Positions 2,930-59,969 of a stretch of 64,000 nt of DNA are shown piece by piece. The first letter of the stretch is position 1. Every line of letters starts with the position of its first letter. The stretch is from contig OX597817.1 of assembly GCA_951406725.2 (NCBI GenBank), positions 100,502,001-100,566,000 on the forward strand. Reading direction: 5' to 3'. Made by a program: the position numbers and the translations under genes. The notes beneath the pieces are model-generated. The model saw only the letters and a program-made list of their open reading frames with translations. It did not search any database and was not told where the DNA came from. This DNA is from Octopus vulgaris (taxonomy: Eukaryota).

Positions 2930-3886
2930 GAGAGAGTAGAACGCCCATCAACCTCCATCACTGACGAGAAGATTCAGCAAACTCGAGAAATGGTAATGGT
3001 TAACAGGCAAGTTATCCTCGATGAGATAGCTCATTCTCTGCAGATTAGTCATGGTTCTGCCTATCAAATCATCCAGAATCAGCTCGGTTTCCATAAAGTC
3101 TGTGCAAGGTGGGTGCCAAGAGAGCTTACTGCATAGCACAAGCGCAAACGCCTTGAGGTCTGTCAACGTTTACTCGATCGCTACAACAACGAGAGCGCGG
3201 AATTTTTGCGCAGAATTGTCATAGGAGATAAAACGTGGGTGCATCATTATGAGGCAAATTCCAAAAGACAGAGTGTGGAGTGGAAACATCCTGGTTCGCC
3301 AGCGACGAAGAAATTCAAGACTCAGTATTCCGTGGGAAAGGTGATGCTAACCCTTTTTTGGGACTCAAAAAGGCCTATACTGGAAGACTGCCTGGAAAAG
3401 GAGTATGCGATCAACAGCGCAAGACACAGTGCTTTGCTGGCCAACAAACTGAAGGCAACAATTCGCGCCAAACGCCGAAGCCTATTGTCAAAGAAAGTTT
3501 TGTTGTTGCATGACAATGCACGCCCACACACAGCCGCCCATACCGTTGAAACCGTTAGCCAATTGAGTTTTGAGGCGCTGGAACACCCTGATTACAGCCC
3601 AGATCTTACCCCTTCCGACTATCATATATTTGGACCACTCAAAGATGGTTTACGAGGTCGTCTATTTCCTACGGATGAAGATGTGAAGGAAGCGGTGCAT
3701 AAATGGTTGCACGACCAACCGATCATCATCTTCTTAGAGGGAATACGTAAGCTTCTGGACTGCTGGACTAAGTGCATCGAAAAGGAAGGAGACTATATAG
3801 AAAAATGACGTACTTGTTTATCCCCTGTTTTTGTGTAAATACATTGAAAAAACAAGAGTTTGTATAATTTTTGACTCTCCCTCGTA
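2930..3886 (+). mobile_element. Mariner (DD34D) transposon, 5'-truncated; transposase ORF 3206-3808
   Basis: Motifs IVIGDKTWVHHYE, LLHDNARPH and HPDYSPDLTPSDYH. 3' TIR ends TTTTGACTCTCCCTCGTA at 3886. Confidence 0.92.
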
Positions 3887-8474: not shown

Positions 8475-10223
8475 CTAGCAGCTAAGCCCGGTTTCACTCG
8501 GTCAGGGAACGACGCGAAGAGAAAAACGAAAGAAGTGAACATGAAGTGTTGTTTGGGCGGTGGATCTTGGTAGAAAAAAAAAGAATGTCAGTCATTGTGA
8601 GTTCGTAAGGAGAGCAAAGCAAGACTGGACCTACGTGGGCTGGCAGGACGATGAAAAAATTGCGGAGTTGAAATTAGAGCAGTTGAAGTTACCGTTGTTA
8701 TCATTGGAGTGCCTCTTGGTAGACAACATTCTTCGTCCTTCCCTCGAGTGTACAAATGGAAAGACCATGGGGACTGTCAACACGGGAGCAGCTAACATAC
8801 ACTTGTCCGCGTGAGAATACTTGCTCTGTCAGATTCAAATCAACCACTTGCAGTGATTGTCCCTGCGCCTTGTTGACTGTCATAGCAAAGCAGAGTTTGA
8901 TGGGAAATTGCACCCATTTAAATTTGTAGGTCGTATCGGAGGGAATGAAGGATATAGGAGTTATAATGACGTCTTTGCCAGCCGCCGGTCCATTCAAGAT
9001 TGTTGCCTGGAGAACTCGGGAGCACAATATTTTGATAATCATCCGCGTACCATTGCACATTATTGGAACATCTAAACTCCTTAGCAGCATGATTGGCGCG
9101 CCAACCTTCAGATGCAGTTCGTGAGGTGGTAGTCCTGCGGGTGTTTGCGAGTTAAGGAATTCAGGTGTAGCTTTTCTCAACCTTATCATTTCGGCTCCCC
9201 TGTTTCGGTTGGAGCCTCCAGCTGCACGAAAATTTTCTGATCCCCCCACTTTTCGTCAGATTTGTCATGGGCCTGTCGGTCTATCTAAAATACATGGGGA
9301 GATGAATTTTTTCATCAACACAGGGGAGCCAAAATAAATTTTTTCAATGTCCAATGGAAGCCGAATCGTGAAAAAGGTTGAGAAATGCTGATCTATTACG
9401 ATGGTTTTTATTTAGGCACATCGTAAAAGTATTTTAAAAAAATTGTTAAATATAAAGAAAAATATGTTTTTTGAAGCAAATGCAGTTAGAAAAAATATTT
9501 GCCATTTCAAGTCATCACTAAAAACAAAGCTCAATTTTTGAATGAAATAATAATTTTATTCTTTTATTGTAAGTTGTAAATTTTGCCCGAGAAATAAAGC
9601 AAATAATCACGAAATGCATTGTTAAAAATCTGCAACTCGATAGCAAATCTCTCCAAATTGATTAGAAATGCATAAATTTAATAATAATGACGCTAAATAA
9701 AGTCTGGTCGAGGAATACCAAAGAAATTACTTTATATTAACAAAAAACAGACACGTGCTTTTATAGAGAACAGATTGTACTCAAGTGAAACATACCAAAT
9801 ACACAGTTGAAACGCTGTAGGATTTTTCTTTTCAGCGTTGAATGTTACCATCTCACTTCCATTGCGTGCACACGCGCACACATACACAAACACGCACATA
9901 AACACATACGCGCGCACACACACACATTCACATTCACCCCCCCTTTTACATACACACAGATATATTCACACAGAGTTGAAAAGCTGACATCACCCTTCCT
10001 TCCTTATTTATGTATCATCCCTTCCTTTCTCATTCATAAACAAGAGTATTATTATAGGAGATTATCTCGCAAACCACGGGAGCTATGAAAAAAATAAAAA
10101 ATTCAGCATCATCACCGTATCATTCTATACATGTGTGTAATTTTTCGCGCAATTCCACCCAGCCGTTTGACCGTGAATCGCAAGACAAGAAAGAATCGCC
10201 CATGTCATATTTATATGTATAGA
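8475..10223 (-). mobile_element. Non-autonomous Helitron carrying a Pif1-like helicase C-terminal fragment (8701-9165)
   Basis: Terminal CTAG at 8475 with an adjacent hairpin; 5' TCTATAC at 10223. Protein motifs PHELHLKVGAPIMLLR, FAMTVNKAQGQSL, FSRGQVYVSCSRV. Confidence 0.85.
9168..9390. mobile_element. Putative hAT-type MITE inside the Helitron
   Basis: Terminal inverted repeats tagcttttctcaacctt / aaggttgagaaatgctg. No clear TSD. Confidence 0.45.
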
Positions 10224-20480: not shown

Positions 20481-20849
20481 TATATAACACATACATAAAA
20501 TATATATATTTAAATGTCTTTGTGAAAATTACTTGATAGAATTTTATTAAGTATAAAAAAGATTTTTAAAAATATTTTAAAAAGTTATAAATTCTTTATC
20601 AGAACGTCACTATTCTTTGTGGAAGAAGTTTCTTTCTACTGTGTGTGTAACCGCTTTCGATTATCTTTTCAAACACACGTGTTCTTAGATAATGTTTGAA
20701 AGAGGAAGTTGTTATTTTTGTAGTAGTGGTAGTATTAACTATTTCCGGTTTATTTTCGGACTTAGGATTTTCATGAAGTATTCTTCCTTTGTCTTTCATA
20801 GTTAATCATTTTTATATATTTTGTAAAAAGGGAATATGTAAATATTCTT

Positions 20850-21860
20850 TTACATTTTGCCTTTCGTAGTTGATCATTTTCATCGTTTATTTGGTAACAT
20901 GGAATATTAAAAAATTTTCCATTTGCACAAATATCTAGATGTTCACTGCATTATTAAGTGGTGAATTTGTTGTATATGCAAATTTACACGACTGGTCAGT
21001 TCCCTTCTTGTCTCCCCAATGTAGTTTTCATTGCATTGGGGAGATGTGATGCAGTAGATGAATTTTTTGTTTTGCAATTCATGTTTGCATTCACCTATAA
21101 TTCCTTCCCATTCTTGAATCTGTTGGTTGTCTCTTGTTCAATTAATTCACATATCCCACAACAAGGGTCTCTACAGTTGGTTACTTGCATCGTTTCTTTT
21201 TCAAATGTGAATCTCACCTTTGAGGTTTAGTGGTTGTCTTCGACTGTTGCTAATTTGTGATTTTTAAAATTATTCGTGGGAGATTTGGTGGTTGATGAAG
21301 AATTAAGAGGTATCGTTTGACTGAATGCAGGATGGCGTGGTTTCTAGGATTGTGGGTGGATACAAATGGAATAATTGTATTTGTATTTTTGTTTTCACAC
21401 CTAGCCTGAGTGTTTCTCTTTGCTTTTGGTACGTCATGTTGAATTACTTTGTTGGGATATTTTTGTTTCTGAAGGAATACTATTTTTGCTATTCTTTTCT
21501 CTCATTTAACGTTATCTGTGACTACTGAGCACATATGCTTTGTCATATTAAATGGTATGTTACTTTTTCTATGGGAAGGATGGCAAGATCTAACATCTAA
21601 ATATTGGTGTATGACTGTGTTCTTGCAGTAGAGGTCAGTTGTAACTGTCTCATTTTCTTTGAATATCAGAATAGCCAGAAAGGGGAGTTCCTTTTCATTC
21701 ATTTCCATAGTGGATTGGATTGAGGCATGAATGCTATTTATTAATTTAAGCAGATTGGTTCCTAGTTTCATCAGAGGTGACAGAGCCTCTTTCAACCATA
21801 TCCAAACTTCTTCCACAATTGTTAGTGTCGTTCCGATAAAGAATTTATAACTTTCTTTAA
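20850..21860 (-). mobile_element. Penelope-like element fragment (RT thumb + GIY-YIG remnant)
   Basis: ELPFLAILI..TDLYCKNT..QYLDVRSCHPSH..NIPFN, with a downstream YIGET-like motif near 21010. Confidence 0.8.
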
Positions 21861-22268
21861 GTGGCTGTGTGGTAAGTAGCTTGCTAACCAACCACATGGT
21901 TCCGGGTTCAGTCCCACTGCGTGGCATCTTGGGCAAGTGTCTTCTGCTATAGCCCCGGGCCGACCAATGTCTTGTGAGTGGATTTGGTAGACGGAAACTG
22001 AAAGAAGCCTGTCGTATATATGTATATATATATGTGTATGTGTGTGTGTTTGTGTGTCTGTGTTTGTCCTCCTAGCATTGCTTGACAACCGATGCTGGTG
22101 TGTTTATGTCCCCGTTACTTAGCGGTTCGGCAAAAAGAGACCGATAAAATAAGTACTGGGCTTACAAAAGAATAAGTCCTGGGGTCGAGTTGCTCGATTA
22201 AAGGCGGTGCTCCAGCATGGCCGCAGTCAAATGACTGAAACAAGTAAAAGAGTAAAGAGTAAAAGAGT
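21861..22268 (+). mobile_element. SINE family A, young copy
   Basis: Nearly identical to 53547-53977; ends in (GTAAAAGA)-like repeats. Confidence 0.92.
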
Positions 22269-27199: not shown

Positions 27200-27641
27200 G
27201 GCTTATAGGCCCTTGGCAATGCTCTCTCCCAATGCATAAAAGGAAATTGGAAAATATTTTTGAACAACTGCCTCACCCTCTGGAGTCACAACATAAATAG
27301 ACTCTTGGAGTTCAAAAGACTCCTTAACAGCATTAACACCAACTGCAATTTACAACGGAACACCACCAAGAGGAACTCCCATTCTTAGACATATTGGTTA
27401 AAAAATAAACAAAGAATAGAAACGGACATTTTTTTACAAAACCACAGACGACATTAAACAATATCTATTATTAAGCTCATGCCACCCGAGACATCAAAAA
27501 CAAAATATCCCTTTCAACCTTGCAAGAAGGATTTGCACTATAGTGTCCGAAAAAGTATCAGAGAACTAAGATTGCAAGAGCTTAAAAACGTACTCCAGGA
27601 TAGACACTACCTAATTTAACTCATAGTTGAAAACGCCATTA
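27200..27641 (+). mobile_element. Penelope-like RT fragment, interrupted by a Helitron
   Basis: EELPFLDILVKK..IETDI..QYLLLSSCHPRH..NIPFNLARRICTIVS. Confidence 0.8.
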
Positions 27642-28879: not shown

Positions 28880-31800
28880 TCGGCATAAACACTCTACCAC
28901 TACAACTAATAACTGTTGGGAACACTTTCAAACCTGCCTTACATTCGGACCGGAATCTCAACGCCCGAGTTTTCCATCTGAAGTTAATCTCTCTCATGGA
29001 GCTCATGCAAAAAGGGTAAGTCTTTGGGCCCATACAATGTGACATGTACACAATCGAGCCTTCCACATGCTCATATCCTGCTTTGGCTCTCAGCGAAGAT
29101 CAATTCCAATGACATCGACAAGATAATCTCTGCAGAGCTTCCTGATCCAGCTTTAGACAAAGAACTATACGAAATAGTTAAAGCAAACATGGTACATGGT
29201 CTATGTGGGCGTGGATTCAACATAAACACACCATGCTTGAAGGACAGCATATGTTCAAAAAAATTTCCAAGGATGTTCCTACAAGAAACTCAGACAGGTG
29301 ATGATGGGTACCCATCATACAGACGCAGAAAACCAGAAGACGGAGGTTTCACAGTAGCTATCGGACAGCACGATATTGATAATAGATGGATTGTTCCATA
29401 CTGCCCACTCCTGTCAAAGACTTTCAATGCCCACTCCTGTCAAAGACTTTCAATGCCCACATCAGCGTTGAGTTTTGCAACTCCGTTAAATCTATCAAGT
29501 TTGAAGTTCAAACATTGCAGCGTCAGAACCCTTGCTTACATATTTGCAAACGTACTTGATGGATTTAACGGTTTTCAAATATGTAAACAAGGGTTCTGAC
29601 GCTGCAATGTTTGGACTTCAACAAGAATACTGCCAGGATGAGGTGACGCATTATCAGGTGGGACGGTACATAAGTAGCAACGAGGCTTTCTGGCGCATCT
29701 TTGGCTTTCCAATTCACCAACGACACCCCGCCATTAAACAGCTTGCAGTGTACCTGGAAAATGGTCAAAGAGTGTACTTCACCGATGCTAATGCTTCTCT
29801 GTTGGCAGAGGAAACAAGGGATAGCACACTCACTGCATTCTTTAAGCTTTGTCAAGTGGATCAATTCGCTCAAACCTTGCTGTATCCACAGATTCTATCG
29901 TACTACACTTGGAATGGAAAAAAATGGGCCCCACAGAAATCAGGTCAAAATGTTCATGGATACCCTGGCATTAAGTTTCACACTTGCCTTGGGCGAGTAT
30001 ACACAGTGCATCCCACTCAACAAGAGTGCTTCTACCTTCGTCTACTACTGCATGAGGTCAGAGGGCCAACGTTTTTCCAGGCCCTAAAAACCGTTCATGG
30101 ACATGTCTGCACAACATACAGAGAAGCCTGCTATCGACAAGGTCTGTTAGAAGATGGTGCACAATGGGATGCAACTTTAGGAGAGGCTGCTTTATCAAAA
30201 TCACCTAAAAGTCTCAGGGCACTATTTGCAGTATTACTACAGGCATGAGAACTGTGTGATCCGGCCACTTTATGGCTCAAATATAGAGACAACCTGGCTG
30301 AAGACTTTCAGCGCCAAGCTCAACTGCTCTATCCTGACATGGAGGGTATCAGCAATGAAATCTATAACAAAACACTCATTGACATTGAAGACAGAATTGC
30401 TAAACTGGGTGGAAATGAATTGTCGACGTATGGCTTGCCACAAGCATTCAGGTCAGGGTCAAATAGCCTTCCCACTGCTGTCATTCGTGAAACAACCTAC
30501 GACACTCAAGCGCTTTCAAAGTACATTGTTGAAAATGAGCCTAATTTACTTCCGGACCAGCTGCAGGCCTACAGAACTATTCTTAACAGTGTACGCCAAC
30601 GCGAGGGACGAATCTTCTTCCTCGATGCTCCTGGAGGGACAGGAAAAACATTTATTATAAAGTTTCTCCTTGCAGAAGTTAGGCAGCATCAGGACATTGC
30701 AGTAGCTGTAGCCTCCTCTGGCATTGCAGCTACTTTGTTACCCGGTGGCAGGACAGCACACTCAACTTTTAAACTCCCTTTCAATTTAGCAGCATCCGAA
30801 ATGCCTTCATGCAACATCAACAAAAGCTCAGATCAGGGATAAGTACTTAAAATGTGTCATCTAATTGTCTGGGATGAATGCACTATGGCTCACAAGGGAG
30901 CTTTGGAAGCATTAGATAGAGCCCTGAAAGACATCCGAGACTGTCAGGCTCCAATGGGAGGTGTAACGCTTCTGTTGTCAGGTGATTTCAGGCAAACTCT
31001 TCCTGTCATTCCGAAAGGCACTAGAGCAGATGAAGTCTAAGCATGCCTAAAGTCCTCTACCCTGTGGCATCATGTTACGATCCTCAGTCTCACCACTAAC
31101 ATGAGAGCTCAGCTACACGGCGACAAAATGTCCACAAAGTTTGCACAGGACATGTTGACACTTGGTGAAGGCAAGATGCCTCTCGATGCTGCAGGACAAA
31201 TGGAAGTGTGGTCATTTTCCTCTGTTGTTAATTCTGTAGATGACCTCAAAAACAAAGTCTTTCCCAACTTCACACAAAACTACTAAACTCACAATTGGCT
31301 GTGTGAAAGAGCAATATTAGCTCCAAAAAACGTCGCTGTTAACAAAATTAATCAACAGCTAATGCATTCTCTTCCCGGCACTATACACACTTACAAGACT
31401 GTTGATACAATTCCAGATATAAATGAAGTTGTGAACTATCCTCCTGAATTTCTCAATTCACTGGAGCCTCCCGGACTACCTCCACACATATTAGCACTTA
31501 AAGTTGTAATGCTACTCCGCAATCTGGAACCACCAAGACTTTGCAATGGAACACGACTGGTGATATGGTGATAAAGAAAATGATGTCACACGTTATCGAG
31601 GCGATCATTCTTTCTGGATGTGGAAAAGGCGATGACGTCTTTATTTCAAGAATTCCTCTTACTCCATCAGGAGCAGAAATTCCATTTACATTCAGAAGAC
31701 TGCAATTCCTCCTTCGTGTCAGCTTTGCCATGTCCATTAACAAATCTCAGGGCCAAACCCTCTCTGTAGCTGATCTTCTCTTGGAAGAGCCCTGCTTCTC

Positions 31801-33832: not shown

Positions 33833-34200
33833 TCATTGGCTGTAATAGAGAAAGTGACCTTTGGCCGTAATAGCAGTAGTAGAAGAGCCCGTTGGTCGTA
33901 GTAGTAGAAGTGACCGTGGTGGTGGTTGGAGTTGTAGCAGCAGTTCATTGGCTGTAGTGGTAGTAGCAGCAGCCGTGGAAGTGACCGTTGGCTGTAATAG
34001 CAGCAATAGAAGAGACTGTTGTTCGTAGTAGTAGTAGTGACCGCGGTGATAGTGGTGGTTGGAGTTGTAGCAGTAGTTCATTGGCTATAGTAGTAGTAGT
34101 AGTAGAAGTGGAAGTGACCGTTGGCTGTAATAGCAGCAGTAGCAGAGACCGTTGTTTGCAGTAGTAGTGATCGTGGTGGTAGTGGAGGTTGGAGTTGCAG
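33833..34200. repeat. Degenerate minisatellite with a unit of about 110-135 bp, roughly 3 copies, TAG-rich
   Basis: Recurring cattggctgta, gaagtgaccgttggctgtaatagcagc and ggttggagttgtagcag. Confidence 0.8.
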
Positions 34201-34231: not shown

Positions 34232-35176
34232 TTAATGTTCATGGCTCAGGGTGTTTAAACTTGGTCCGAATTTTCTAATGAAATGGAGTTCTTTGCTATG
34301 ACGTTGAGTGAAAGTTACGTTGTTATTGAATGGGTAAAGTGGGAAAGTTGAGAATTTTGGATTTTTATTTGATGCACATCTGTATATGTGGCCGCTAAAT
34401 AGGTATTTTCCTGTATTCAAGATTCCTAATTTGGGATTTATGTACTGTCATCTTTTTCGTAGACTGTTTTTTGTATGACCAATATATTGCCTTTGGCACC
34501 CTGCGCATGTTATCACGTAAATTAAGTTTTCCGATGCACAGATGAAGTTTGTTCTGATGGTAAAATGATGGCCTTGTTCTAATGTGTCTTCCTAACCGTC
34601 TACTAAGATGACATAGATCCCGCAGTTGGGCTTTCCACATTTAACTGTTGATTTTGTGGTTGTTATTGGGTGCAATTTAGCCTGGGTTAAAATCCTTCAG
34701 TAGGGCTGTGCTTTGGAATATGGTGCTGAGGGCCTCATTGTTAAGTGGGTTGTATGTACAGATGTAGGGTAGGGTTTTTAAATTTTCTTCCTTTTTTGGT
34801 TTTGGTTGTCTCAGGTCTTCTATATTTAATTTCAGTGCTCGTTGGATTGTATTGTCTATTAGGGTTTTTTGAATAATTCCTATTTATGAGTGTAGTTCTG
34901 AGTTCCAGGAGACGTGTGTATCGGGTGTTTGTGTCTGATACTATGGTGCAAATCTTTCTGGCTAAACAGAAAGGGATATTTATTCTTGTGTGTCTTGGGT
35001 GGCATGAGTCATATGGTAGGTATTGCTTTGAGTCTGTCGGTTTATAATATATATCCGTCTCTATTTTGTTGCCGACTTTCTTAATGAGGATGTCTAGAAA
35101 TGGTAGTTTTTCTTGGTTATATTCTATCGTGAATTGAATGTTTTCATTAATTCCATTTAGTAGTATTTCAAATTTT
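34232..35176 (-). mobile_element. Penelope/Poseidon-like element 3' part (RT thumb + GIY-YIG)
   Basis: EKLPFLDILIKK..TDIYYKPTDSKQYLPYDSCHPRH..IPFCLARKICTIVS, with downstream MTVHKSQIR and SGHIYRCA. Confidence 0.88.
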
Positions 35177-41661: not shown

Positions 41662-42840
41662 GGTAATTCCATAAGTAACACGTTTTTTTTTCAAGTGCAT
41701 GAACCAAAAGACGGAGGTGGACGGTATAAACTACCTGCATCAATTTGCTAGAAAAGCTGGTAGTAATTTTACCTTGTACTTATTTTTAGTACAAGTTTTG
41801 AAGAGTGCAGTTCAATTTTAACAGTTAATTTTTCAAAGCTATAATGGAAGTGGCAAAGGAGCATATATTCTTTTTGAGTTCAATAAAGGCAACATCGCAA
41901 CGGAAAGTACAAGGAATGTTAATGCAGTATATGGGGATCAGAAAATAATTCTAAGCCAGTGTCAACAGTGGCTCCGGAAATTCCGACCCGGAAACTACGG
42001 GCTAGAAGACGAGCCTCGTCCTGGAAGATCTGGAGAGCTCGACGAGGACGTCCTGCAAACCCTGGTGGAACAAAATCCCATCTTAATTGTTGAGGAACTA
42101 GCAGAAAAGCTTGGATTTAGTTATTCAACCATTTATCGACACCTGCGTGTCATTGGAAAAGTCAGAAAATTCGGTCAATGTGTTAGTCACAAACTTTCCG
42201 AATCTAATCGCGCGCAGCGAGTGAATGTGTGCTCTTCTTTGCTGCCACGTCTCACGAATGAATCTTTTTTGGATCGAATAGTGACGAGAAATGAGTTCTC
42301 TTTAAAAATATCAAACACCAAAGACAGTAGGTAGGAGAAGGAGCAACACCGGCATCCCAGGCTAAAGAAGGTCTTCACCCACGTAAGATGGTGTCACCTG
42401 TTTCGTGGGATATGAAAGGTTAGAACTTTTAAATCCAAACCTAACTATAATAAAGGAAACCTACTGTGAGCAGGTTGAGCGGCTTAAGTCAGCGCTAGAA
42501 AAAAAAAACGACCATCTTTGGTTTGAAGACGAAAGGTGTTCTTTCATCAGGATGATGCTCGGCCACATACAGCGAGGATGACATTCCAAAGGCTGGAGTA
42601 GTTTGAATGGGAAACGACTCTCCACCCACCATATTTGCCTGACGTTGCTCCATCTGATTATCATTTATTTCGCAGTTTTCAAAATCATTTGGATGGAAAA
42701 TATATGAATTCTGTAGAGGAGGAATATTTTTTGCCAGGGACAAGTAAATTTTGGATGAGGGGCCTTGCAAATCTACCATATAGATGAAAGAGCATAGTAG
42801 AAAATGAAGGAAAGTATATTTTAGATTAAAAAAGAACCTG
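41657..42840 (+). mobile_element. Mariner transposon, decayed
   Basis: LEDEPRPGRS, EELAEKLGFSYSTIYRHL, FHQDDARPH, HPPYLPDVAPSDYHLFRS. Confidence 0.9.
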
Positions 42841-42869: not shown

Positions 42870-45431
42870 CGGGATTCAATGGATCAAAATAAACTGTGGG
42901 ATATCTGTCATGGATGGGGAATGGAAGGAGTCTCCAAGCAGCTTCATTACTGCTTACATAATGGCCTATTAGATATTGGTGTACCTCATTGATGCCCTAT
43001 CAGCATCTGAAAGGCCAAAGATAGCCATGTCGGACCCTTTGTTTATATATGTGTATACATACTTGATGGAGCGAACGGAATTGCAAAATTCCACGTTAAT
43101 GTGTGCCTTGAAAACTCGTAGCAATAGAGGACTATATGGGACAATCCATCTGTTGTCTACAACGACCGGAGTTTGCTGTGGCCGAAGGGTGAAATGGAAT
43201 CCACCGTCTCCCGGTTAGCGTCTTTTGTACGTTGGATCCCCGTCATGTCCAGTGTGCGTTTCAGAAGTGAACTGTTTAGGGTACCCTTTTGAGCACTTTC
43301 CATTTATCATGCATGGGGAATTCTGATTATAAGGACTACAGGGACCATGAACCATATGCGATTTGACGATGTCGAAAAGTCGTTTGTCTACATCCTGATT
43401 TGGAATCTCCGCACTTATAACAGAGTATATTTGGGTTGAGTGAAACTTTTCGTTCAACCAAATCAAAATATGTGCATGCGGCAGGCCTCGTTTCTGCCAT
43501 TCGAAGGTATACATTCGATAGATAACTTCTCCAATTATTTTTTTATTTGTAAGTATGTCCATGAATTTCAATATCTTAATGTGGAAAACCCTCGCGATTA
43601 AGTCGTGTCGATGATGGGGTTTTTGCCCTGGCAGAAGATTTTCAGTAACTTCAGTTCACTTAGGATTGCTTGTGAATGTAAGGAAAAGGTCTGGAGAAGC
43701 AAAGTTTCTAACACAGGTCATAGCGTCTTGTGTTTTTTCGTGTATGTACCTTGGTTCCCCGGTGAAGGAAGCCGGAAGAATAACCCTGTGGCCGACATTT
43801 TGAATGTCATCATCATTGGCAATAGCATCCCGCAAGAGGATGTAGGATTTAACACGAAGTTTTAGTTGGTTATTTTTTATATAAAGATGGCGCTGATCCT
43901 CCACTTTAGCGTATATGTCTACCATGAACTGCTGGAAAAGGTTACATTTGAGTAAGTGGCTGACCGGCTCACGAACCATGATCATGAAGGTGTAAAAGTC
44001 ATTGCTAGTGACAGACTTTGTTTGATAATTATGTCTGGTTAGTGGATAGCTATCTTGCCCTTCCCAGAATATGATTGGTTACTGTAGATCATCATATGAA
44101 CGATGAGTCTCAGAAACCCTTCATAATGTATTGTCACGTGAGTGGATAACAATAACCCTGCGGTCATATTGATCGCCAACTAAGATACAGGCGACCTCTT
44201 CAGTGGTGGGGGCATTGTATCAACCCAAGTACTGTCTAACGGGTTTTTGTCGGCTCTTATGGCTAGGTTAAAATCATTTGAAATTTGTGTCTATTCTGCT
44301 GCAACTTATAGTTGTCGAATCAGATTATTTTGGGTCAAAAACATGGTCTGCAGAGTAGAAACGATGTCCTCATGCAAGGCTGTTATTATCTGACAGTGTC
44401 ACCTTAACTGCTGCTGGTTGTTTCCCATAAAGTAAATTTGCAGAAATTTGGCTGGGTCATCGTTGGATGGTATACTTGCCCTTGCACTCTGAATGTCGTC
44501 TGAAATCTTTCCTTTGCTATTTGTTAAGTCGCGCCAAAAGATGTCAGCTGGGAAGTGAAATTGTAGCGTCGAATGTACTTTGATTCTGTAGTACACCCAT
44601 CTAGCAAGTCAAATAATGGCTGTGGAGGAGGTTATAAAAAATGAATCTGAACCTTGTCTCCAGAGCAACACATTCCAGGACTTTCACACGCAAACTTCTT
44701 TGCCCCACAGAACCTGCACAGATGCGATAGCCAGCCTACTCTTACAGCAAGATCTCCCCTGTAATCTAAATCAGGATCATATATAAGAGCCGATTTCTCT
44801 TCGCAAAATGCACCTTCCATTGGTACATGCGTGGGGGCGGCAGGCATTATATATTGGACACTCGAACTCATTATAATAACACTGTCTATACTGCGATTTG
44901 TCCTAACAAACGCTTGCCTATTGGATGCTTGTAAGAGGCGGTTGTCACGCTGTTGGTGAGACTCAGCTGCTCGGTTTGTTGCAGATCTACATCGGTTCAG
45001 TGTAAGGCGCTCCGAACGGTGCTCCTGAGACTCAGCAGATCGGGCTGCTGCAGTTGTACGTCTGTTTCATAGTAAACGTGTGGAACATGCTTCCTGACAC
45101 TCAGCTGCTCTGGTTGCTGCAGTTCTACGTCTGTTTCGAAGAAGATGTATGGAATGTGCTTCCTGAGACCCAGCTGCTCACGTTGCTTCTGCAGTCCACC
45201 GATTATGAAGATGCCGCACCTGGCAGTCTACCTCAAACTCTGATGTCCGTGTTGCTGTTATTCTACACCTGGTTTTTTAAACTCGTTGCAGCCGTTCTGT
45301 TTGAGACTCTGACACTCGTATTGCTGCAGCTGTTCACGCTGAAGTGAGTTTTCTTGAGTACGAATAGAAGCCGCTTTCTTTGCGGCCATTGTTTGTGGAA
45401 ATAAATTAGAATGTCTTCGTTTTAGTGGCAT
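42870..45431 (-). pseudogene. Helitron Rep pseudogene (N-terminal repeats, zinc finger, HUH Rep; helicase missing)
   Basis: CRFCGAKKFACESPGMCCSGDKV, KFLQIYF, ILPASFTGEPRY, DLFLTFTSNP, EWQKRGLPHAHILIWL, YVSSNEAAWR. Confidence 0.92.
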
Positions 45432-49600: not shown

Positions 49601-51155
49601 GAATACGATTGGGGTATATTTAGGTAACACAGCGTAATTAGAATACCCGAAAATCTATGATGACAAATAGATAACAAATGACAAGCTGCTTATTTGAAAT
49701 CCTTCAATATGGCGACTGTAAACAATGGGAGAAATATTTTATTTTTATCTCTAGTAAACAGAAAAAAAAAACATAAGGGAATCCTCGAATATAACCGTAC
49801 CCTTATCACAATTCTTCGACGAACTAGGGAAATTGAACCTAACTCACTATATTTATATATAGTGAGTTACGTATGAGAACAATTGGTTATTTTTCATAAC
49901 GTCTGCAGTGCGCCTAGTGAAAACTTTCAAATAAATAACTATATATTTGTGTTTAAGGTATTCCGAATTCCGCACTATAATCTATAATAAACTTCACTAT
50001 GTTTATATACGTTTATATATCATCTTTATATATCATTCAACTACGAAATTGCAACCTTAAGAATATTATTCAACTACTATCGTAGTTGAATAATATTCTT
50101 AAGGTTGCAATTTACTCACACGCAGCATCTTTCAGAACTTGTCATTAATTCAGTTCTTAACCAAATAGAAAACTGTTAAGATCTTTGAAGAGGACTGGTC
50201 CCTAGCTACATTTTGGCATATAAAATTGATATTTGATTTAGTAGAAAAAAAGTTTACATCAAAATTTGTAGCAACGTTATAGAAGAGTAAGTAACGCCAC
50301 CACTCAAGTTTAGATCTAAATAACTTTTTATTTTAAAAGCAAAAAATATTTATCTTAGCTTCAATGATAGAAGAAAGCCTGAAGAATTTCATAGTTTGTA
50401 TAAAAAAAGTTGTGAGGTAAAATATCATGAAAAAATATAAGCAAGCCAAAAAATAGGATTTTTTTTAATTTTTAAAGCAAACTATATCTTAATTAAGCAT
50501 AAATGATAGAGTACAATTCGAAGAATTTCATGGTATCATCTCATGCAATGAAGTTTCAAAAGAAAAAGTTGCGAGTATTTGTTTCTCAAATTTGAGGGTA
50601 ATAATGTAGTTCTATACTTCTTTATGAATATAGTTCTTTAAGGAGACTTTTAATATATGTCACCGGTGTCATTGAGATAAGGAAAAAATTATCAACAACA
50701 CTGCTAATTGACGCATTTGACACATTATTAATTAGCATAATAGCATAGCCTGGAAAAAAACATGAATTACATGGAAAAATGCGAGCAAGAGAAATAATAA
50801 TCTTAAGATTACAAACTTTGGAAATTACAGTACAAGTTATTACACTTGGAAAAGTTCAGGACAACTTATTACATCTGATAAAGTACAGAACAAGAAAATT
50901 TTTACTTAAAATATTGCAGCTAAAATAAATTTTTACTTAAAATATTGCAACCTTTTCAATAGTCAAGATTATTGAAAAGGTTGCAAGACGCAACGAAAAT
51001 TTTAGGAAAATAAAAATAAGAAATAAGTGGAAATTTTACTGGTGAATGTGTTAAATTATAAGGCACAAAAAGAAAATGACTCTCCCCATACACAACAGAA
51101 TATGCTTCAACACACGAACTCATAAAGAATCTTGTAAACCAAATCCAAAAATGAA

Positions 51156-51186
<31 letters not shown>

Positions 51187-51346
51187 CGTACATTTGCCAT
51201 TTGAATATGGCTAACCCCTAAGGGTGGATGCTACTGTAGTTTGTAGCCCCAGGAGGACACCTCCTCCAGCTGGCTATAGACACACTTTCTGTGCCCTATC
51301 AGTATTTGTGAAGGAAAGTCATCCTTCCCGTCTTCAACTTATGATA

Positions 51347-51391
51347 CACACGGACTCGAGTTTCAAGGTATTAACCTATCATCGGCGTGTG
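51347..51391 (-). ncRNA. Minimal hammerhead ribozyme (inverted copy)
   Basis: cacacg-CCGATGA-taggttaatacctt-GAAA-CTCGAG-TC-cgtgtg. Confidence 0.8.
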
Positions 51392-51487
51392 ACAATCATA
51401 GTTGTTGACGAGAAGTCAGCTCCCTTCACAAATACATATACTTTTTCCAAATACATATACTGACTTGTCGTCGACAACTATGATTGT

Positions 51488-51532
51488 CACACGCCGATGA
51501 TAGGTCAATACCTTGAAACTCGAGTCCGTGTG
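51488..51532 (+). ncRNA. Minimal hammerhead ribozyme, predicted cleavage after 51526 (GUC)
   Basis: cacacg-CCGATGA-taggtcaatacctt-GAAA-CTCGAG-TC-cgtgtg, with a perfect 6-bp stem I and palindromic stem III. Confidence 0.85.
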
Positions 51533-51839
51533 TATCATAAGTTGAGGACGGGAAGGATGACTTCCCTTCACAAATACTGATAGGGCACAGAAAGTGTGTC
51601 TATAGCCAGCTGGAGGAGGTGTCCTCCTGGGGCTACAAACTACAGTAGCATCCACCCTTAGGGGTTAGCCATATTCAAATGGCAAATATACGTCACGATG
51701 TGTTTCCGCTACTGTTTATAACTCGCTCTGAGATTTATCATTGTTTGATTTCACTTTTTCAATATCAGTGTCAATCGATACTGGAAAAAGTATATGTATT
51801 TGTGAAGGGAGCTGACTTCTCGTCGACAACTATGATTGT

Positions 51840-51884
51840 CACACGCCGATGATAGGTCAATACCTTGAAACTCGAGTCCGTGTG
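51840..51884 (+). ncRNA. Minimal hammerhead ribozyme, predicted cleavage after 51878 (GUC)
   Basis: Identical to 51488-51532. Confidence 0.85.
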
Positions 51885-52094
51885 TATCATAAGTTGAAGA
51901 CGGGAAGGATGACTTCCCTTCACAAATACTGATAGGGCACAGAAAGTGTGTCTATAGCCAGCTGGAGGAGGTGTCCTCCTGGGGCTACAAACTACAGTAG
52001 CATCCACCCTTAGGGGTTAGCCACATTCAAATGGCAAATATACGTCACGATGTGTTTCCGCTACTGTTTATAACTCGCTCTGAGATTTATCATT

Positions 52095-52130
<36 letters not shown>

Positions 52131-54055: not shown

Positions 54056-57000
54056 CAGGGGCGTGCACTCTCAGGTATGCGTTGCATGCCCTGTGATTTT
54101 TTTATCCATATGATCGGAAGATTAGATAAAATAGTTACTTTGTTTCAAAATCCGTCCAGTTGTTTTTTGGGAAATATTTCGTCTCCCCTTCTCCTCTCAC
54201 AGTGACTCGTACTTCTGCTTTGAGAAGTCATGCTTTGAGAAGACCCGCATGACAGACACTCCCTCTCTGTCTCAGTTTGTCCTTCCTTCCTTCCTTCCTT
54301 CCTCCCCCCCCTCTCTCTCTCTTAGTGACTTGTTTAAAAGACATGCTAAGAGGATAGGGCATTTGGAATATTTTTACCCCCTTCCTCTCTCTCTTTGTGG
54401 TTCGTCATGCTTTGAGAAGGCCCGCATGACCTCCCTCTCTGTCTCTTTGTTAGTTTGTCCCTCCTTCCTCTCTCTCTCTTAGTGACTTGATAAAACAGAT
54501 GCTAGGAGGAAAGGTCGTTCATAATATTTTGTACCCCCTTCCTTTCTTTCTCAGTGGCATGTCATGCTTTGAGATGACCGCATGATACCCACTCTCTGTC
54601 TCTTTGCTAGTGTAGAATTGTTACTAACCTTGTTCCATTTCTGACCGGAACAAGAGCAGTCCCATAATTCTTAAGTTAGCCAGCTGAAATGTTGGAATAA
54701 CTTAGCGGTAAGTTTGAATTTTTTTAACCAAAACATCTGTTTGCACTATTATATTTTTGGAGTGTTCTGAAAACAAAAATATAATCTATATTATAGTTCT
54801 TATTTCAGAAGTAGTTAATTAATCTTAAATTAATTCCGTTTTGTTGAAATTGACTAACAATTTACGCCGGCGCTTCCACGTGTGTTCGTATATAAGAACA
54901 GCCTTTTACGAAATGAGTGAAATGTGTGTTATAAACGATATTTTGAGAAATAGTTTTTCGAAAAGAGACTTCGATGGAAAACAATTAATTATAAATGGTG
55001 GGAGACCAACACCGAAATTACCTAATCTGCGAAGCTACAACAAGAAATTCACGAGACAATTCCAGGTTAATTTGTATGAAAAGAAAAAATGGTTAACTGG
55101 GAGTGCTATCCTTATTAAATCTGTTGGCCTTGTTTACTTTTTTGCTTAGAAAAGAATGTTTGGAATGATAAAGGCTATGATGATTTAAATAATTTACATA
55201 TGGCTATGTTAAAGCACAAGCGTTCTCAAAGGCATATAAAATATTTGATAGATCTTAAAATATTCGAGAATGTTCGCATAGACTTACAATTAGATGCATG
55301 TAAAAATCAAAGCATACAACATCATAATGAGAAAGTCAGACAAAACAGATCCATTCTGCAACGATTGATCGATGTTGTTATTTTTTTAGGCTTCCAGGAA
55401 TTATCGTTTTGGGGTCATTTTGAATCTGAAGGCTCTAATAATAGTGGAAATTATAAAGAACTCTTATATGTAATCAGTAAATATGACAAAAAATAGAAAG
55501 TCATCTAGATACAGCTTCTATCTTCACCGGTCTGTCAAACAGAATTCAAAATGACTTGATCGATGCAATTCATAAAGTTATGTTGAATGAGATGCAAAAG
55601 GAAATCGAGCAAGCTAAGTTTGTTTCTATTTTTGTTGATGAGACATCTGATGTCTCAGCATATTCACAACTGTCAACAGTTTTACGTTATGTTACAGAAG
55701 ACTGTGTGACGAAAGAACGATTTATCGGTTTTAGTGATGTTAGTGCAGATCGATCTGTAAATGCTTTATCTGAACATGTTTTTAAATGCATTGAATTGTG
55801 GAAATGTGAAAACAAATTGATTGCACAAACCTATAACGGTGCCACTACAATGGTAGAACAGTTAAATGGGTTACAGGCAAAAGTAAGAAAGAAATACGAA
55901 TGTGCGATTTTCATTCATTGTTGTGCCCATATCCTAAATTTAGTTCTTTCACAATCATGCTCTGCTATGAAAGAATGCAAGATATTTTTTTGTACAATAA
56001 ACGGACTGAGTACATTTTTTACGAAATCACCGAAAAGGGCTAATGTATTAGATAACATTGTTAAAAAAAAGATTTCCGAAGGCAACAGCAATGGAATTAC
56101 TCCTCACGGCTTATTATTACCACAAAGGAAAATTATAATTTCATAATCAGCCTTTTTGAGCACATCATTGAAAATCCTGAAGCATGGGATGATACCACCA
56201 TAAATTCAGCAATTGGATTCTTACACACTTTAAAAGCTCCAGATTTCTTATTTTTGTTAGAAGTATTCAGTGAGATTTTTTCTTTTACTGGCGTCTATTT
56301 AACATCCCCCAGAATAAAAGTCATGACATAGTGTATTGTAAAGAGCAAATAGATAAAACTAGAACTGTACTCGAAAATAAACTTGATAATTTTTCAATCT
56401 TTTATATGTTAGAGGAAAAATATGGAGTCGATGCAGGAATCGGAATTCAGAGATTCAAGAATATATCTATTGAGCCCCAACGACATTATAAAATGCTTTA
56501 TAACAAAATTATCAGTGCAATAGTTGACCAAATAAAAGCACGATATTCATCCTTAGAAGAGTTTAAATTCATGGAGCTTTCGAATTTCAACAAATTTGAT
56601 GAGTATTGCAAACAATTTAAAATTCATGGGTACTATTTAAGAAGAGTGGTCCCGGTGCGCGCACCCGAGCATCCACGCCATCTAGTCGTGACTAGTCGAT
56701 CCTTACTTTGTGTTTTTGTGTTTTATTTACTTTGTTTAAAACATTATTTACTTTGTGTTTTTGTGTTTTATATATTTTGTTTAAAAAATTTATTTACTTT
56801 GCTAGATAGTCGTAGGATCGACTAGTCACGACTAGCCAGCGCGGATGCGCGAGCGCGCGCAAGGGGACCACCCTTCTTAAATAGTTCCAGGGTGACGTTT
56901 TTTTTATTCTAGGTCATACGGGGGTGATTGCATATTCAGAATCTCCCATATGTAAATCGTAGGAATTCGAACATTTTTTTACTGAAAAATTGCCGTGGTG

Positions 57001-58689: not shown

Positions 58690-59969
58690 TACGAGGGGCG
58701 TTCAATAAGTAATGCCCCTGACTCACTTCCCATAGCAGTAGAGCAAAGAAACTTGGCACAGTTATTACACATTTTCTACATAGAAAACACCCAGAGTTAC
58801 GCATTTCTCCCATCGTTTGATGCAGCTCTGGAGACCGTTTTTGTAGAAGACCCCAGCTTGGTCCTTCAGCCACGACGTGACTTCAGAAATCAAGGCTGCA
58901 TCATCTAGGAAACGCTTTCCTTTTAAAAACAACTTCATGGCTGGGAAGAGGTGAAAATCAGAGGGTGCAAGGTCAGGAGAGTAGGGGGGATGGGGGAGGA
59001 GTTCATAGCCGCACGCCTGTGCTTCTGATCTGGCGACAAGCGAGTTGTTGACCGGAGCGTTGTCCTGCAGGAGGAGGATCTTGCCCCGCCTCTTGATTTT
59101 GATAGCTTCTCTTAATTTCCTCAAACGTGAAGCATAATAGGCTCCTGTAATTGTGGTACCCTTTGCCAGGAAATCTGTCATCACTACTCCGTCCTGGTCT
59201 CAGAAGACTGTGAGCATGACCTTACCAGCGGAGGGCTGCACCCTTGCCTTCTTTGGAGGAGGTGAGTCACGGTGCTTCCACTGCATTGACTGGGCTTTGG
59301 TCTATGGATCATAGTGATGGACCCAGGTTTCATCCTGTGTAATCAGTCTTTTAAAAAGTTTTGACTCATCTTCTTGGCACATCTCCAAATTCATCCTCGA
59401 GCACTCGACACGTTCTTGCTTCTGGAAAGGTGTGAGCAACCTGGGAATCTATCTGGCAGGCACCTTTTGCATATGCAAATGGTCATGAATGATAGTTTCC
59501 ACAGACCCGGTACTAATCTTGACCTCATGGGCTATTTGGTGAATAGTTATGCATCGATCTTCCAAAATGGCAGCCTCCACTTGACAGACAGATGTCTCAT
59601 CAATGGCAGAAGGAGGCGACCAGATCTGGGAGCTGTTTCCACAGAGTTCCGACCATGTTTGAATTCACAATGCCAGCGTTTTACAAGGTCATATGATGGG
59701 GCATCATCACCATAAGTTACTTTCATTTCATCAAACGTCTCCCGTGGTGTGCGTCCTTTCAAATACAAAAACCGGATCACTGCTCGACACTGAACAGGCT
59801 CCATTTCACACTTGACTCAGTTCAAACACCTGTAAATCAGAAACCACAATTAGTTCAGAGCTGTAATTTCCCACTTAATCTATAGAGATATGAATAATTG
59901 CACATGCAAAATTTCAGCTAGATCAACTGCAAGTGGGTCAGGGGCATTACTTATTGAACGTCCCTCGTA
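58690..59969 (-). mobile_element. Full-length defective mariner with both TIRs and TA ends
   Basis: TACGAGGGGCGTTCAATAAGTAATGCCCC...GGGGCATTACTTATTGAACGTCCCTCGTA. Motifs LLQDNAPVN and HPPYSPDLAPSDFHLF. Confidence 0.95.

Follow-up and report, generated by a model that had tools for sequence, protein, structure and literature searches.

Results

A hammerhead repeat inserted in a (TA)n tract

The window, by which we mean the whole stretch of 64,000 nucleotides of the Octopus vulgaris genome that was analysed (contig OX597817.1, positions 100,502,001 to 100,566,000), contains at 51183-52097 one insertion of a non-coding, multi-copy hammerhead repeat, that is, a non-LTR retrozyme. The insertion is flanked on both sides by (TA)n tracts. 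Its features are listed in window coordinates; positions within the repeat itself are given as unit positions.

51156-51182, no strand: left (TA)n target tract; in the family, TA-rich flanks occur at 153 of 222 outer 3' ends
51183-51449, minus strand: inverted arm of 267 nt, unit 256-352 followed by 1-170, with the short 3' end, E1 (unit ~170-173), on the outside
51347-51391, minus strand: third hammerhead, antisense, with one loop-II difference
51450-51459, plus strand: insert at the junction of the two arms, which repeats 51431-51440
51460-52097, plus strand: direct arm of 1.8 units (unit 286-352, 1-352 and 1-219), with the long 3' end, E2 (unit ~216-220), on the outside
51488-51532, plus strand: hammerhead 1, type I, with a CCGAUGA core (U4C), U·U at 10.1/11.1 and a palindromic stem/loop III; predicted cut after 51526
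51527-51878, plus strand: 352-nt monomer between the predicted cleavage sites; 42.9% G+C, branched fold
51840-51884, plus strand: hammerhead 2, identical to hammerhead 1; predicted cut after 51878
52049-52097, plus strand: "tail" delimited by the two fixed 3' ends (unit 171-219), which only one arm carries on its outer side; internal copy at 51697-51745
52061-52097, plus strand: stretch (unit 183-219) with the highest conservation in families C and D, the distant ones; internal copy at 51709-51745
52098-52129, no strand: right (TA)n target tract

This layout bears out the original prediction, which was made from the letters of the window. Hammerheads 1 and 2 are letter-identical and carry GTC at 51524-51526 and 51876-51878, a spacing of 352 nt; the third copy is inverted and lies upstream, at 51391-51347; and the locus sits inside (TA)n, as described. 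The short duplicated patch reported between the arms was also found (11 nt, at 51431 and 51450) and is one of the junction inserts of the family; the insert at 51450-51459 is likely a templated one, made when two cDNA ends were joined. The direct repeat at the locus spans 287 nt with 3 differences. No frame of at least 120 aa lies at the locus, the unit thus being non-coding, and the 29 frames scanned among the 46 of this size in the window gave transposon families only.

The hammerhead core and the fold of the monomer

The hammerheads of the locus have a helix I of 6 bp, a helix II of 4 bp and a 2-bp helix III with a palindromic loop. They had been called minimal, but by the definitions of PMC4209133 helices of such sizes make the canonical metazoan type I form, which is distinct from the minimal one. 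The geometry of the minimal hammerhead of Penelope-like elements (PLEs), with a helix II of 7-8 bp, a short helix I and almost no helix III, was not found here. The core departs from the consensus (CUGANGA/GAAA with a 10.1-11.1 pair) in that it reads CCGAUGA, with C instead of U at position 4 (U4C), and has U·U at 10.1-11.1. None of the Rfam hammerhead models matched at the locus, neither at the gathering score nor at E<=10, where 16 other matches appeared, mostly to hairpin-driven miRNA models. According to PMC3088659, U4C lowers activity in vitro considerably, yet a viroid variant that carries it is still infectious; among axolotl hammerheads, one shares the U·U at the foot of helix II, and its self-cleavage improves in the dimeric form (PMC7229834). 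Local pairing at the locus was predicted at ~0.8 for helix I and ~0.5 for helix II, and local helix II probabilities were not higher in the sister family B (see below). For the monomeric helix III the predicted probability is near 0, as expected for 2 bp, and folding software therefore cannot rank activity. The loop-III palindromes are predicted to pair with each other at -10.7 kcal/mol. Judged from its core, the ribozyme of the copy at 51183-52097 is predicted to be weakened.

Folded as a circle, the monomer reached -124.1 kcal/mol, compared to -85.0 +/- 5.6 kcal/mol for 200 dinucleotide shuffles (z = -7.0, 0/200 as low), so that the strong self-pairing expected from the letters was recovered. 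The helices and hairpins that had been picked out by eye are all in this circular minimum free energy structure, among them the perfect 15-bp helix 51563-51577/51796-51810, present without mismatch; one of them, agttg/caact, has 4 rather than 5 bp and shares one base with the adjoining helix. The end-to-end pairing that had been described exists as well, but it corresponds to the extended helix I that type I hammerheads form. A tandem transcript would have the same pairing across its junction, so that, taken alone, the pairing does not argue for a circle.

Four related families

The genome searched comprises 2.8 Gb in 227 contigs. A first-look search with the monomer yielded 2325 candidates, and 40 of them were scored. 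In an exact search, a 25-mer taken from the 3' portion of the unit matched 2052 times genome-wide (control, 0), which sets the copy number, left to a genome search by the original prediction, at ~2,000 units. As the first 100 of these matches represented 67 insertions, the genome total would be roughly 1,400 insertions.

The copies form related families. Family A, to which the window's locus belongs, has the 352-nt unit; family B has 353 nt and is 90% identical; family C has 355 nt (77-78% identical); and family D has 358 nt (64% identical, 224/352). Exact hammerhead patterns were counted genome-wide: CCGAUGA occurs in 324 copies and CUGAUGA in 532. The full consensus core including G10.1-C11.1 is found in 470 copies, those of family B, and a U3-A8 core in 191, most of them in family D and some in family C. 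One array, at C2:14.086 Mb, contains 9 hammerheads.

Changes between these families follow the predicted structure. Between A and C, 7 double changes were seen among 94 aligned pairs and 0 in six slid controls. Covariation within A and B together was modest (6 pairs with double changes, 39/500 shuffles as high), and these two families had fewer pair types than all 500 shuffles. The loop-III palindrome is CTCGAG, CTGCAG or CCGCGG across related families; the upkeep of three different palindromes supports the earlier reading of CTCGAG as a palindromic stem III. Core and palindrome persist over 36% divergence. All together, these comparisons indicate that the 353-, 355- and 358-nt families have preserved the fold, the palindrome of loop III and the 3-8 core pair through compensatory changes. 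Unit 183-219 is also unusually well kept in family D (32/37 identical, against 224/352 overall), and is a candidate recognition site for a PLE protein.

Insertions pair one short with one long 3' end

We pooled 141 insertions, partly chosen as best hits or for two hammerheads, after removal of overlapping loci and of one member per duplicated pair. Their 222 outer 3' ends fell mostly at two sites ~46 nt apart: 113 at E1 (unit 160-179, mostly 170-173) and 93 at E2 (209-225, mostly 216-219), together 206/222, with 16 elsewhere. Outward 3' ends were present on both sides in 81/141 insertions, and in 69 of these both ends could be classed. One E1 was paired with one E2 in 67 of the 69 (p = 4e-18 against independence). 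A sample picked by the 25-mer only, and thus blind to 5' ends, gave one of each in 29/29 insertions, two being segmental duplicates. The window's locus obeys the same rule, its inverted arm ending at E1 and its direct arm at E2. The tail that separates the two sites measures 43-49 nt in retrozyme insertions. With TA-rich sequence at 153/222 outer 3' ends, the (TA)n flanks predicted for the locus are a property of the family.

Target duplications of 11-13 bp were found at 8/10 two-armed insertions outside TA tracts, a length (11) that 0/90 cross-locus controls reached. Such duplications were visible at 3/19 other insertions that are not two-armed, one of which is also TA-like. None is visible at the window's locus, which lies inside (TA)n.

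These observations are best explained if each two-armed insertion contains two separately primed cDNAs, which we consider likely. The inverted arm might instead arise from the first cDNA by fold-back and self-priming, or from an antisense template. Self-priming has been proposed for PLE palindromes (PMC3846280), and some of the 56 junctions of the family, which range from 19-nt inserts to 17-nt overlaps, show short overlaps. The haplotype is also common to both arms, with 67/4409 diagnostic differences across arms vs 60/4266 within arms. However, the lengths of the two arms do not correlate (rho 0.18, p 0.18), the longer arm is that of E1 in 30/60 insertions, the length difference is incompatible with simple fold-back in 23/60, and the target duplications are concentrated on the two-armed insertions. 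A fold-back origin thus appears improbable, and we retain two primed cDNAs. The use of two different RNAs for the two arms was considered too and was not seen except at one locus, L150, whose arms differ at 3 stem-II positions.

The insertions thus carry the features of those of EN+ PLEs: an inverted, 5'-truncated copy, two internal 3' ends, a one-sided tail and an AT-rich or microsatellite target.

Autonomous Penelope-like elements follow the same rule

A GIY-YIG search with follow-ups revealed several young PLE families with intact frames of 781, 775 and 811 aa, separate from the retrozyme; PLE candidates ran to thousands, and those examined were the best-scoring ones. Pfam confirmed the RT and GIY-YIG domains in the 781-aa frame and in the frame of a further element, L114, and the Atlas neighbours of these PLE frames were of the same families. 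The frames carry the CX4CxxC linker that PMC8557442 assigns to Neptune/Nematis.

These autonomous PLEs, too, occupy (TA)n tracts, and their two 3' ends are separated by 30-43 nt. In the 811-aa family, a short and a long end were found in 5/5 cleanly read inverted pairs, with a tail of 40-43 nt (2 further pairs were unreadable or cut short). The 781-aa family showed one of each in 2/2, with a tail of 38 nt; the two ends of the 775-aa family are ~36 nt apart; and L114 has a 100% identical inverted arm and a tail on one side. In biochemical work on PAc, the PLE protein, a predicted dimer, was shown to cut AT-rich DNA on both strands and to extend the two, with priming from two sites inside the RNA that mark the limits of the tail (PMC11167929). 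Because the insertion-end rule of the retrozyme is also that of the genome's PLEs, and because it agrees with this biochemistry, mobilisation by a PLE enzyme is the best reading of the insertions, and we regard it as very probable. Mobilisation by PLEs, which the original prediction had cited as a belief, thereby gains direct evidence from sequence, in the form of an insertion-end rule common to both kinds of element.

The units of families A-D have no significant similarity to the 3' ends of the 781-, 775-, 811-aa and L114-type PLE families. The best match, of 17 nt at the hammerhead stem (III), between family D and the 811-aa family, had an E value of 0.38. The 811-aa family has the tail length closest to that of the retrozyme and a stem III like that of family D, which provides a lead only. 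This family is very abundant (135/135 scored hits at >=97%). Three retrozyme loci (L009, L137 and L156) lie beside its members, and this was considered as a partner link; given the abundance of the family, chance adjacency in shared TA tracts suffices.

The unit might also be the terminal repeat (pLTR) or the 3' end of an unseen autonomous PLE, the copies being truncations. Its ends are of the PLE type, 24/57 Xenopus retrozyme families are homologous to known TEs, 21/22 of them PLEs (10.64898/2026.07.22.740005), and among thousands of PLE candidates only the best-scoring were examined. Against this, arms that reach far upstream enter another unit (a closed permutation) and never a reading frame at any locus seen, and this holds in four families, of 352, 353, 355 and 358 nt. 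Moreover, no PLE frame was fused to a unit as its terminal repeat in the 182 loci checked; PLE hits were present in 7/182, as separate neighbours or kilobases away (3 were inspected closely). We therefore consider truncation of a coding element very improbable. That the unit occurs alone, rather than as the pLTR of a longer coding PLE, had been named beforehand as a point on which the prediction could fall, and in the loci checked it stood.

The template of the insertions

If the template was a linear monomer released by cleavage, arms should pile up at the cleavage site. In 64 passes of this site by arms there were 2 stops (within 3 nt) where 1.7 were expected, with an upper bound of ~7-10%. 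No 5'-end pile-up that could serve as a sign of in vivo cleavage was thus found in these passes, and the cleaved linear monomer was rejected as template. Since the arms cross the cleavage site without stopping, the template would be either a circle or an uncleaved multimer.

We lean, by a narrow preference, to the circle. Circles have been shown for other animal retrozymes (PMC7229834). Private variants are fixed in all 5 copies of L124 and in all 6 of L132, and at least 6 haplotypes exist that are each uniform within a locus; both speak for a bottleneck through a monomer, although unsampled donors or gene conversion could also be the source of the private variants. Divergence within a locus nevertheless resembles divergence to the nearest locus (family A, 2.2-2.5% vs 2.3%; family B, 0.7-0.9% vs 0.8%), so that the sequences alone do not demand a circle. 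The same test gave no sign of a heterogeneous pool of circles.

With the same PLE insertion, the template could be an uncleaved linear multimer, transcribed from one or a few tandem master arrays and only occasionally trimmed by the hammerhead, with no circle at any stage. The absence of stops at the cleavage site fits this equally well, and an array of 9 hammerheads does exist at C2:14.086 Mb. Lineages with U4C have reached at least 324 copies, ribozyme mutants of PAc still insert in vitro, cleavage not being needed (PMC11167929), and 8/9 Xenopus retrozyme dimers are without cleavage (10.64898/2026.07.22.740005). By analogy to PAc, the spread of U4C (324 hammerheads by exact pattern) may mean that cleavage is dispensable. 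On the other hand, under linear copying a daughter insertion cannot exceed the units of its donor: two cleavage sites are kept in only 10/67 sampled insertions, and yet several haplotypes exist as uniform multi-unit arrays. In 31 family-B loci, recurring partial variants were mostly columns of indel alignment, and no clear variant specific to one unit position emerged. Lastly, the core and palindrome have been kept by compensatory changes over 36% divergence. We hold the linear multimer to be the less probable template, even if a serious one.

The original prediction had also spoken of a viroid-like RNA. Replication from RNA to RNA, with occasional writing into DNA, is suggested by the size and self-pairing of the monomer, and the heterogeneous circles of mussel retrozymes have been read that way (PMC7229834). 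Family B, however, hardly varies across loci (median 0.8% to the nearest locus, with several loci at 0), and such uniformity would not come from an error-prone RNA pool. With ~2000 DNA copies, a near-invariant family B and no sign of a heterogeneous replicating RNA pool, the term is overstated, and we give this reading hardly any weight.

Age and output of the window's locus

The insertion had further been described as young. Its segments differ at 3/279 positions within an arm and at 11/494 across arms, compared to 0 in some arrays of family B. The window's locus is not among the youngest, and "young" better suits the sister families B and D, some arrays of which have 0 differences.

It was claimed, in addition, that the insertion at 51183-52097 is itself an active source of a 352-nt circular RNA. 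It does retain two intact cleavage sites on the same strand, as in only 10/67 sampled insertions, helices I and II are predicted to form locally and the loop-III palindromes can pair, and the axolotl dimer and the infectious viroid variant above are precedents for the U·U and the U4C change, respectively. Yet its core combines two weakening changes, its copies are 1-2% apart, and in a read-through transcript the inverted arm is predicted to pair over 262/267 nt with the direct one, at the cost of one hammerhead. Given this pairing, the locus would more probably yield double-stranded RNA than circles, except where transcription begins at the junction between the arms. We therefore find it unlikely that this copy is a young and active source of circles. 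What stands of the description as a retrozyme-like locus is that it belongs to a multi-copy repeat of the non-LTR retrozyme type, is targeted to (TA)n and occurs alone; the rest is called into question by a core that looks weakened and by the 267-nt antisense arm, which is predicted to base-pair with the unit.

Parts of the stretch were present in 20 of the 24 sequencing runs listed, none of which is on record as RNA. Contigs from 4 runs (3 presumed to be RNA, 1 of unstated type) covered all 30 bins of 51747-52097, a type of evidence that cannot show ends, strand, level or circularity. Some of these contigs bridge the cleavage site and some enter TA or unique flanking sequence; they pointed to families B and C.

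Discussion

A model for the insertion of the retrozyme

Taken together, our results are probably best explained by PLE-driven insertion into (TA)n, in which two cDNAs are primed on one RNA, which would be a circle made by the ribozyme. In such a model, a copy with two hammerheads would be transcribed and would cut itself, likely as a dimer held by the loop-III palindromes. The 352-nt monomer would then be ligated, its ends being held by the extended helix I. A dimer of the PLE protein would bind near the conserved tail and nick both strands of AT-rich DNA ~11-13 bp apart. E1 would be the start for one subunit and E2 for the other, and both would copy backward for a random length, possibly beyond one unit. 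Finally, both cDNA ends would be fused by end-joining to give the head-to-head structure.

Comparison with known elements

The octopus unit has the sequence features of animal non-LTR retrozymes, known from mussel (350-390 nt), axolotl (331/353 nt) and coral (225-245 nt; Cervera and de la Pena 2020, PMC7229834). As these do, it is a dispersed, non-coding repeat with one type I hammerhead per tandem unit of 150-450 nt, arranged from dimers to multimers, with a G+C content below 50%, a self-paired predicted circle, target duplications longer than 4 bp (11-13 bp in octopus) and PLEs in the same genome (PMC7229834); its U·U at the foot of helix II recurs in the axolotl HHR_Amex2. In that study cleavage and circles were demonstrated, whereas the octopus unit is known from genomic sequence; the octopus cores include U4C and U3-A8; and mobilisation by PLEs was merely suggested there. 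Its main text gives no hits for a tail, for inverted arms or for microsatellite targets, and mentions neither octopus nor cephalopods.

That retrozymes ride on PLEs is also the view of Li, Clavereau and Pollet (bioRxiv 10.64898/2026.07.22.740005). Their argument is based on co-occurrence and pLTR homology in Xenopus, whereas ours is based on the insertion signature; homology to the pLTR of a resident PLE, as used by Li et al. 2026, did not reach significance in any of the four PLE families that we compared. The main text of that preprint mentions no mollusc and no "tail". Non-autonomous elements of Chlamys such as MRC1 (PMC8557442) are likewise non-coding passengers of PLEs, with pLTR-like partial tandems and multicopy head-to-tail insertions; in contrast to the octopus unit, they generally have the 3' sequence of the autonomous family, and their clade is described as lacking canonical hammerheads.

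With EN+ PLEs (PMC8557442, PMC3846280) the retrozyme shares 5' truncation, partial tandems, an inverted arm, a tail at one end and AT-rich or (TA)n targets, and with PAc two internal start sites (PMC11167929). The tail is optional or often one-sided in the first two papers, whereas here we find a near-strict one of each (67/69), and it measures 30-40 bp in PMC8557442 as against 43-49 nt in the retrozyme. A further difference is that the retrozyme unit encodes no protein, neither RT nor GIY-YIG, and thus is not an autonomous PLE.

In LINE-1 twin priming, cDNA synthesis on one RNA is primed from the two nicked strands of the target, which results in an inverted 5' part; the poly(A) end serves the first primer, and the position of the second site varies. 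The retrozyme differs in that both of its sites are fixed and internal, and in that its two arms overlap in sequence.

We found no twin-priming or paired-priming model for PLEs in the literature, and no cephalopod hammerhead retrozyme, although the supplements of PMC7229834 and of the preprint, or Repbase/Dfam, may hold the family; the 12 supplements of PMC4918200 contain no octopus, cephalopod or squid. The type of element is itself already known. What is new is the evidence at the level of insertions and the rule of one site per arm.

Implications

It is tempting to speculate, and we do so tentatively, that a dimeric PLE enzyme works on one ribozyme-made circle, with two cDNAs that start from fixed sites and chase each other round. 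This would explain both the tandem arrays of the retrozyme and the structure of all PLEs that bear an endonuclease, with its inverted arm and its tail on one side. The retrozyme would then need only a 37-nt tail signal and no helper sequence in common, and may in this way have persisted over 36% divergence through at least 5 hammerhead cores, including U4C and U3-A8.

The machinery that moves animal retrozymes was left open in 2020 (PMC7229834) and argued in the 2026 preprint from co-occurrence and homology (10.64898/2026.07.22.740005). In octopus the insertions themselves bear the PLE signature, beside young intact PLEs under the same rule. Where the PLE literature has an "optional tail", the pairing of one site with each arm yields a sharper prediction for the existing PAc in vitro system. 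Lastly, the four families provide natural active-site variants (U4, C4 and U3-A8, with 10.1-11.1 paired or unpaired) with which to ask if cleavage and circles are needed.

Features of the window around the insertion

Apart from the retrozyme insertion, the window carries decayed remnants of Penelope-like elements (PLEs), fragments of other transposons and short repeats:

20849-21921, minus strand: decayed PLE fragment
27215-27610, plus strand: decayed PLE fragment
34235-35175, minus strand: decayed PLE fragment
33852-34197: tandem array with a 133-nt period, directly 3' of the preceding fragment
3137-3808, 8701-9255, 30249-30842, 41822-42334, 43215-44078, 55119-56146 and 58765-59199: transposon fragments (Mariner-type, Helitron/PIF1, DUF4371)
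50896-50949: perfect direct repeat of 23 nt, and 50945-50986: inverted repeat of 20 bp, both at a distance of roughly 200 nt from the insertion's left end

No host gene was found among the window frames scanned (29 of the 46 frames of at least 120 aa).

Features of individual loci

Elsewhere in the genome, locus L034 (C2:14.086-14.090 Mb) is an array with nine hammerheads, which has the U4C core and lacks TA flanks. Some variants are common to subsets of its units, which suggests that the array expanded after its insertion. At L150, three stem-II positions differ between the arms, each arm matching a different haplotype; this mismatch would reflect either local conversion or the use of two templates. 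Judged by flanks that are 98-99.7% identical around the same insertion, L052/L057 and L170/L171 are segmental duplications, and each pair was entered once in the pooled insertion set.

L233 contains a distinct palindromic element of 450 nt (L233:3090-3539), whose centre is close to a motif that resembles a hammerhead and has a long helix II. A more distant relative of the retrozyme lies further on in L233. At L031:2114-4300, a C-rich, PLE-like frame of 729 aa is flanked by two separate retrozyme insertions; it shows 28-31% identity to the other PLE families and had no match in Pfam.

Hammerheads of autonomous PLEs and of sister retrozyme families

The young 781-aa PLE family (L104:768-2204 and L104:2126-4468) has an additional upstream frame of 479 aa, for which a Pfam scan gave no match; near the element's 3' end lies what looks by eye like a hammerhead variant of the U3-A8 type. 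In another autonomous family (L114:4805 and L116), position 4 of the element's own hammerhead is C, as in the window's hammerheads, which makes U4C a recurrent change across unrelated elements of this genome. The 811-aa family (L296-L309, L281-L295) is very abundant, with inverted arms kilobases long and a tail of 40-43 nt; its hammerhead is U3-A8, with a stem III that resembles that of retrozyme family D in a non-significant match.

Family D (358 nt; L255, L257, L258, L260) has a U3-A8 core and a helix III of 1 bp, its copies are 96-100% identical, and the two 3' ends and TA flanks are as in the other families. Family C (355 nt; L225, L232, L248) has varied cores, U4C among them. Family B (353 nt; L070, L124, L128, L132), with a full consensus core and 470 exact-pattern copies in the genome, is younger than the window's own family A. 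Its arrays reach about five units, some of them without any differences, and family B is the best candidate for the predicted live circles.
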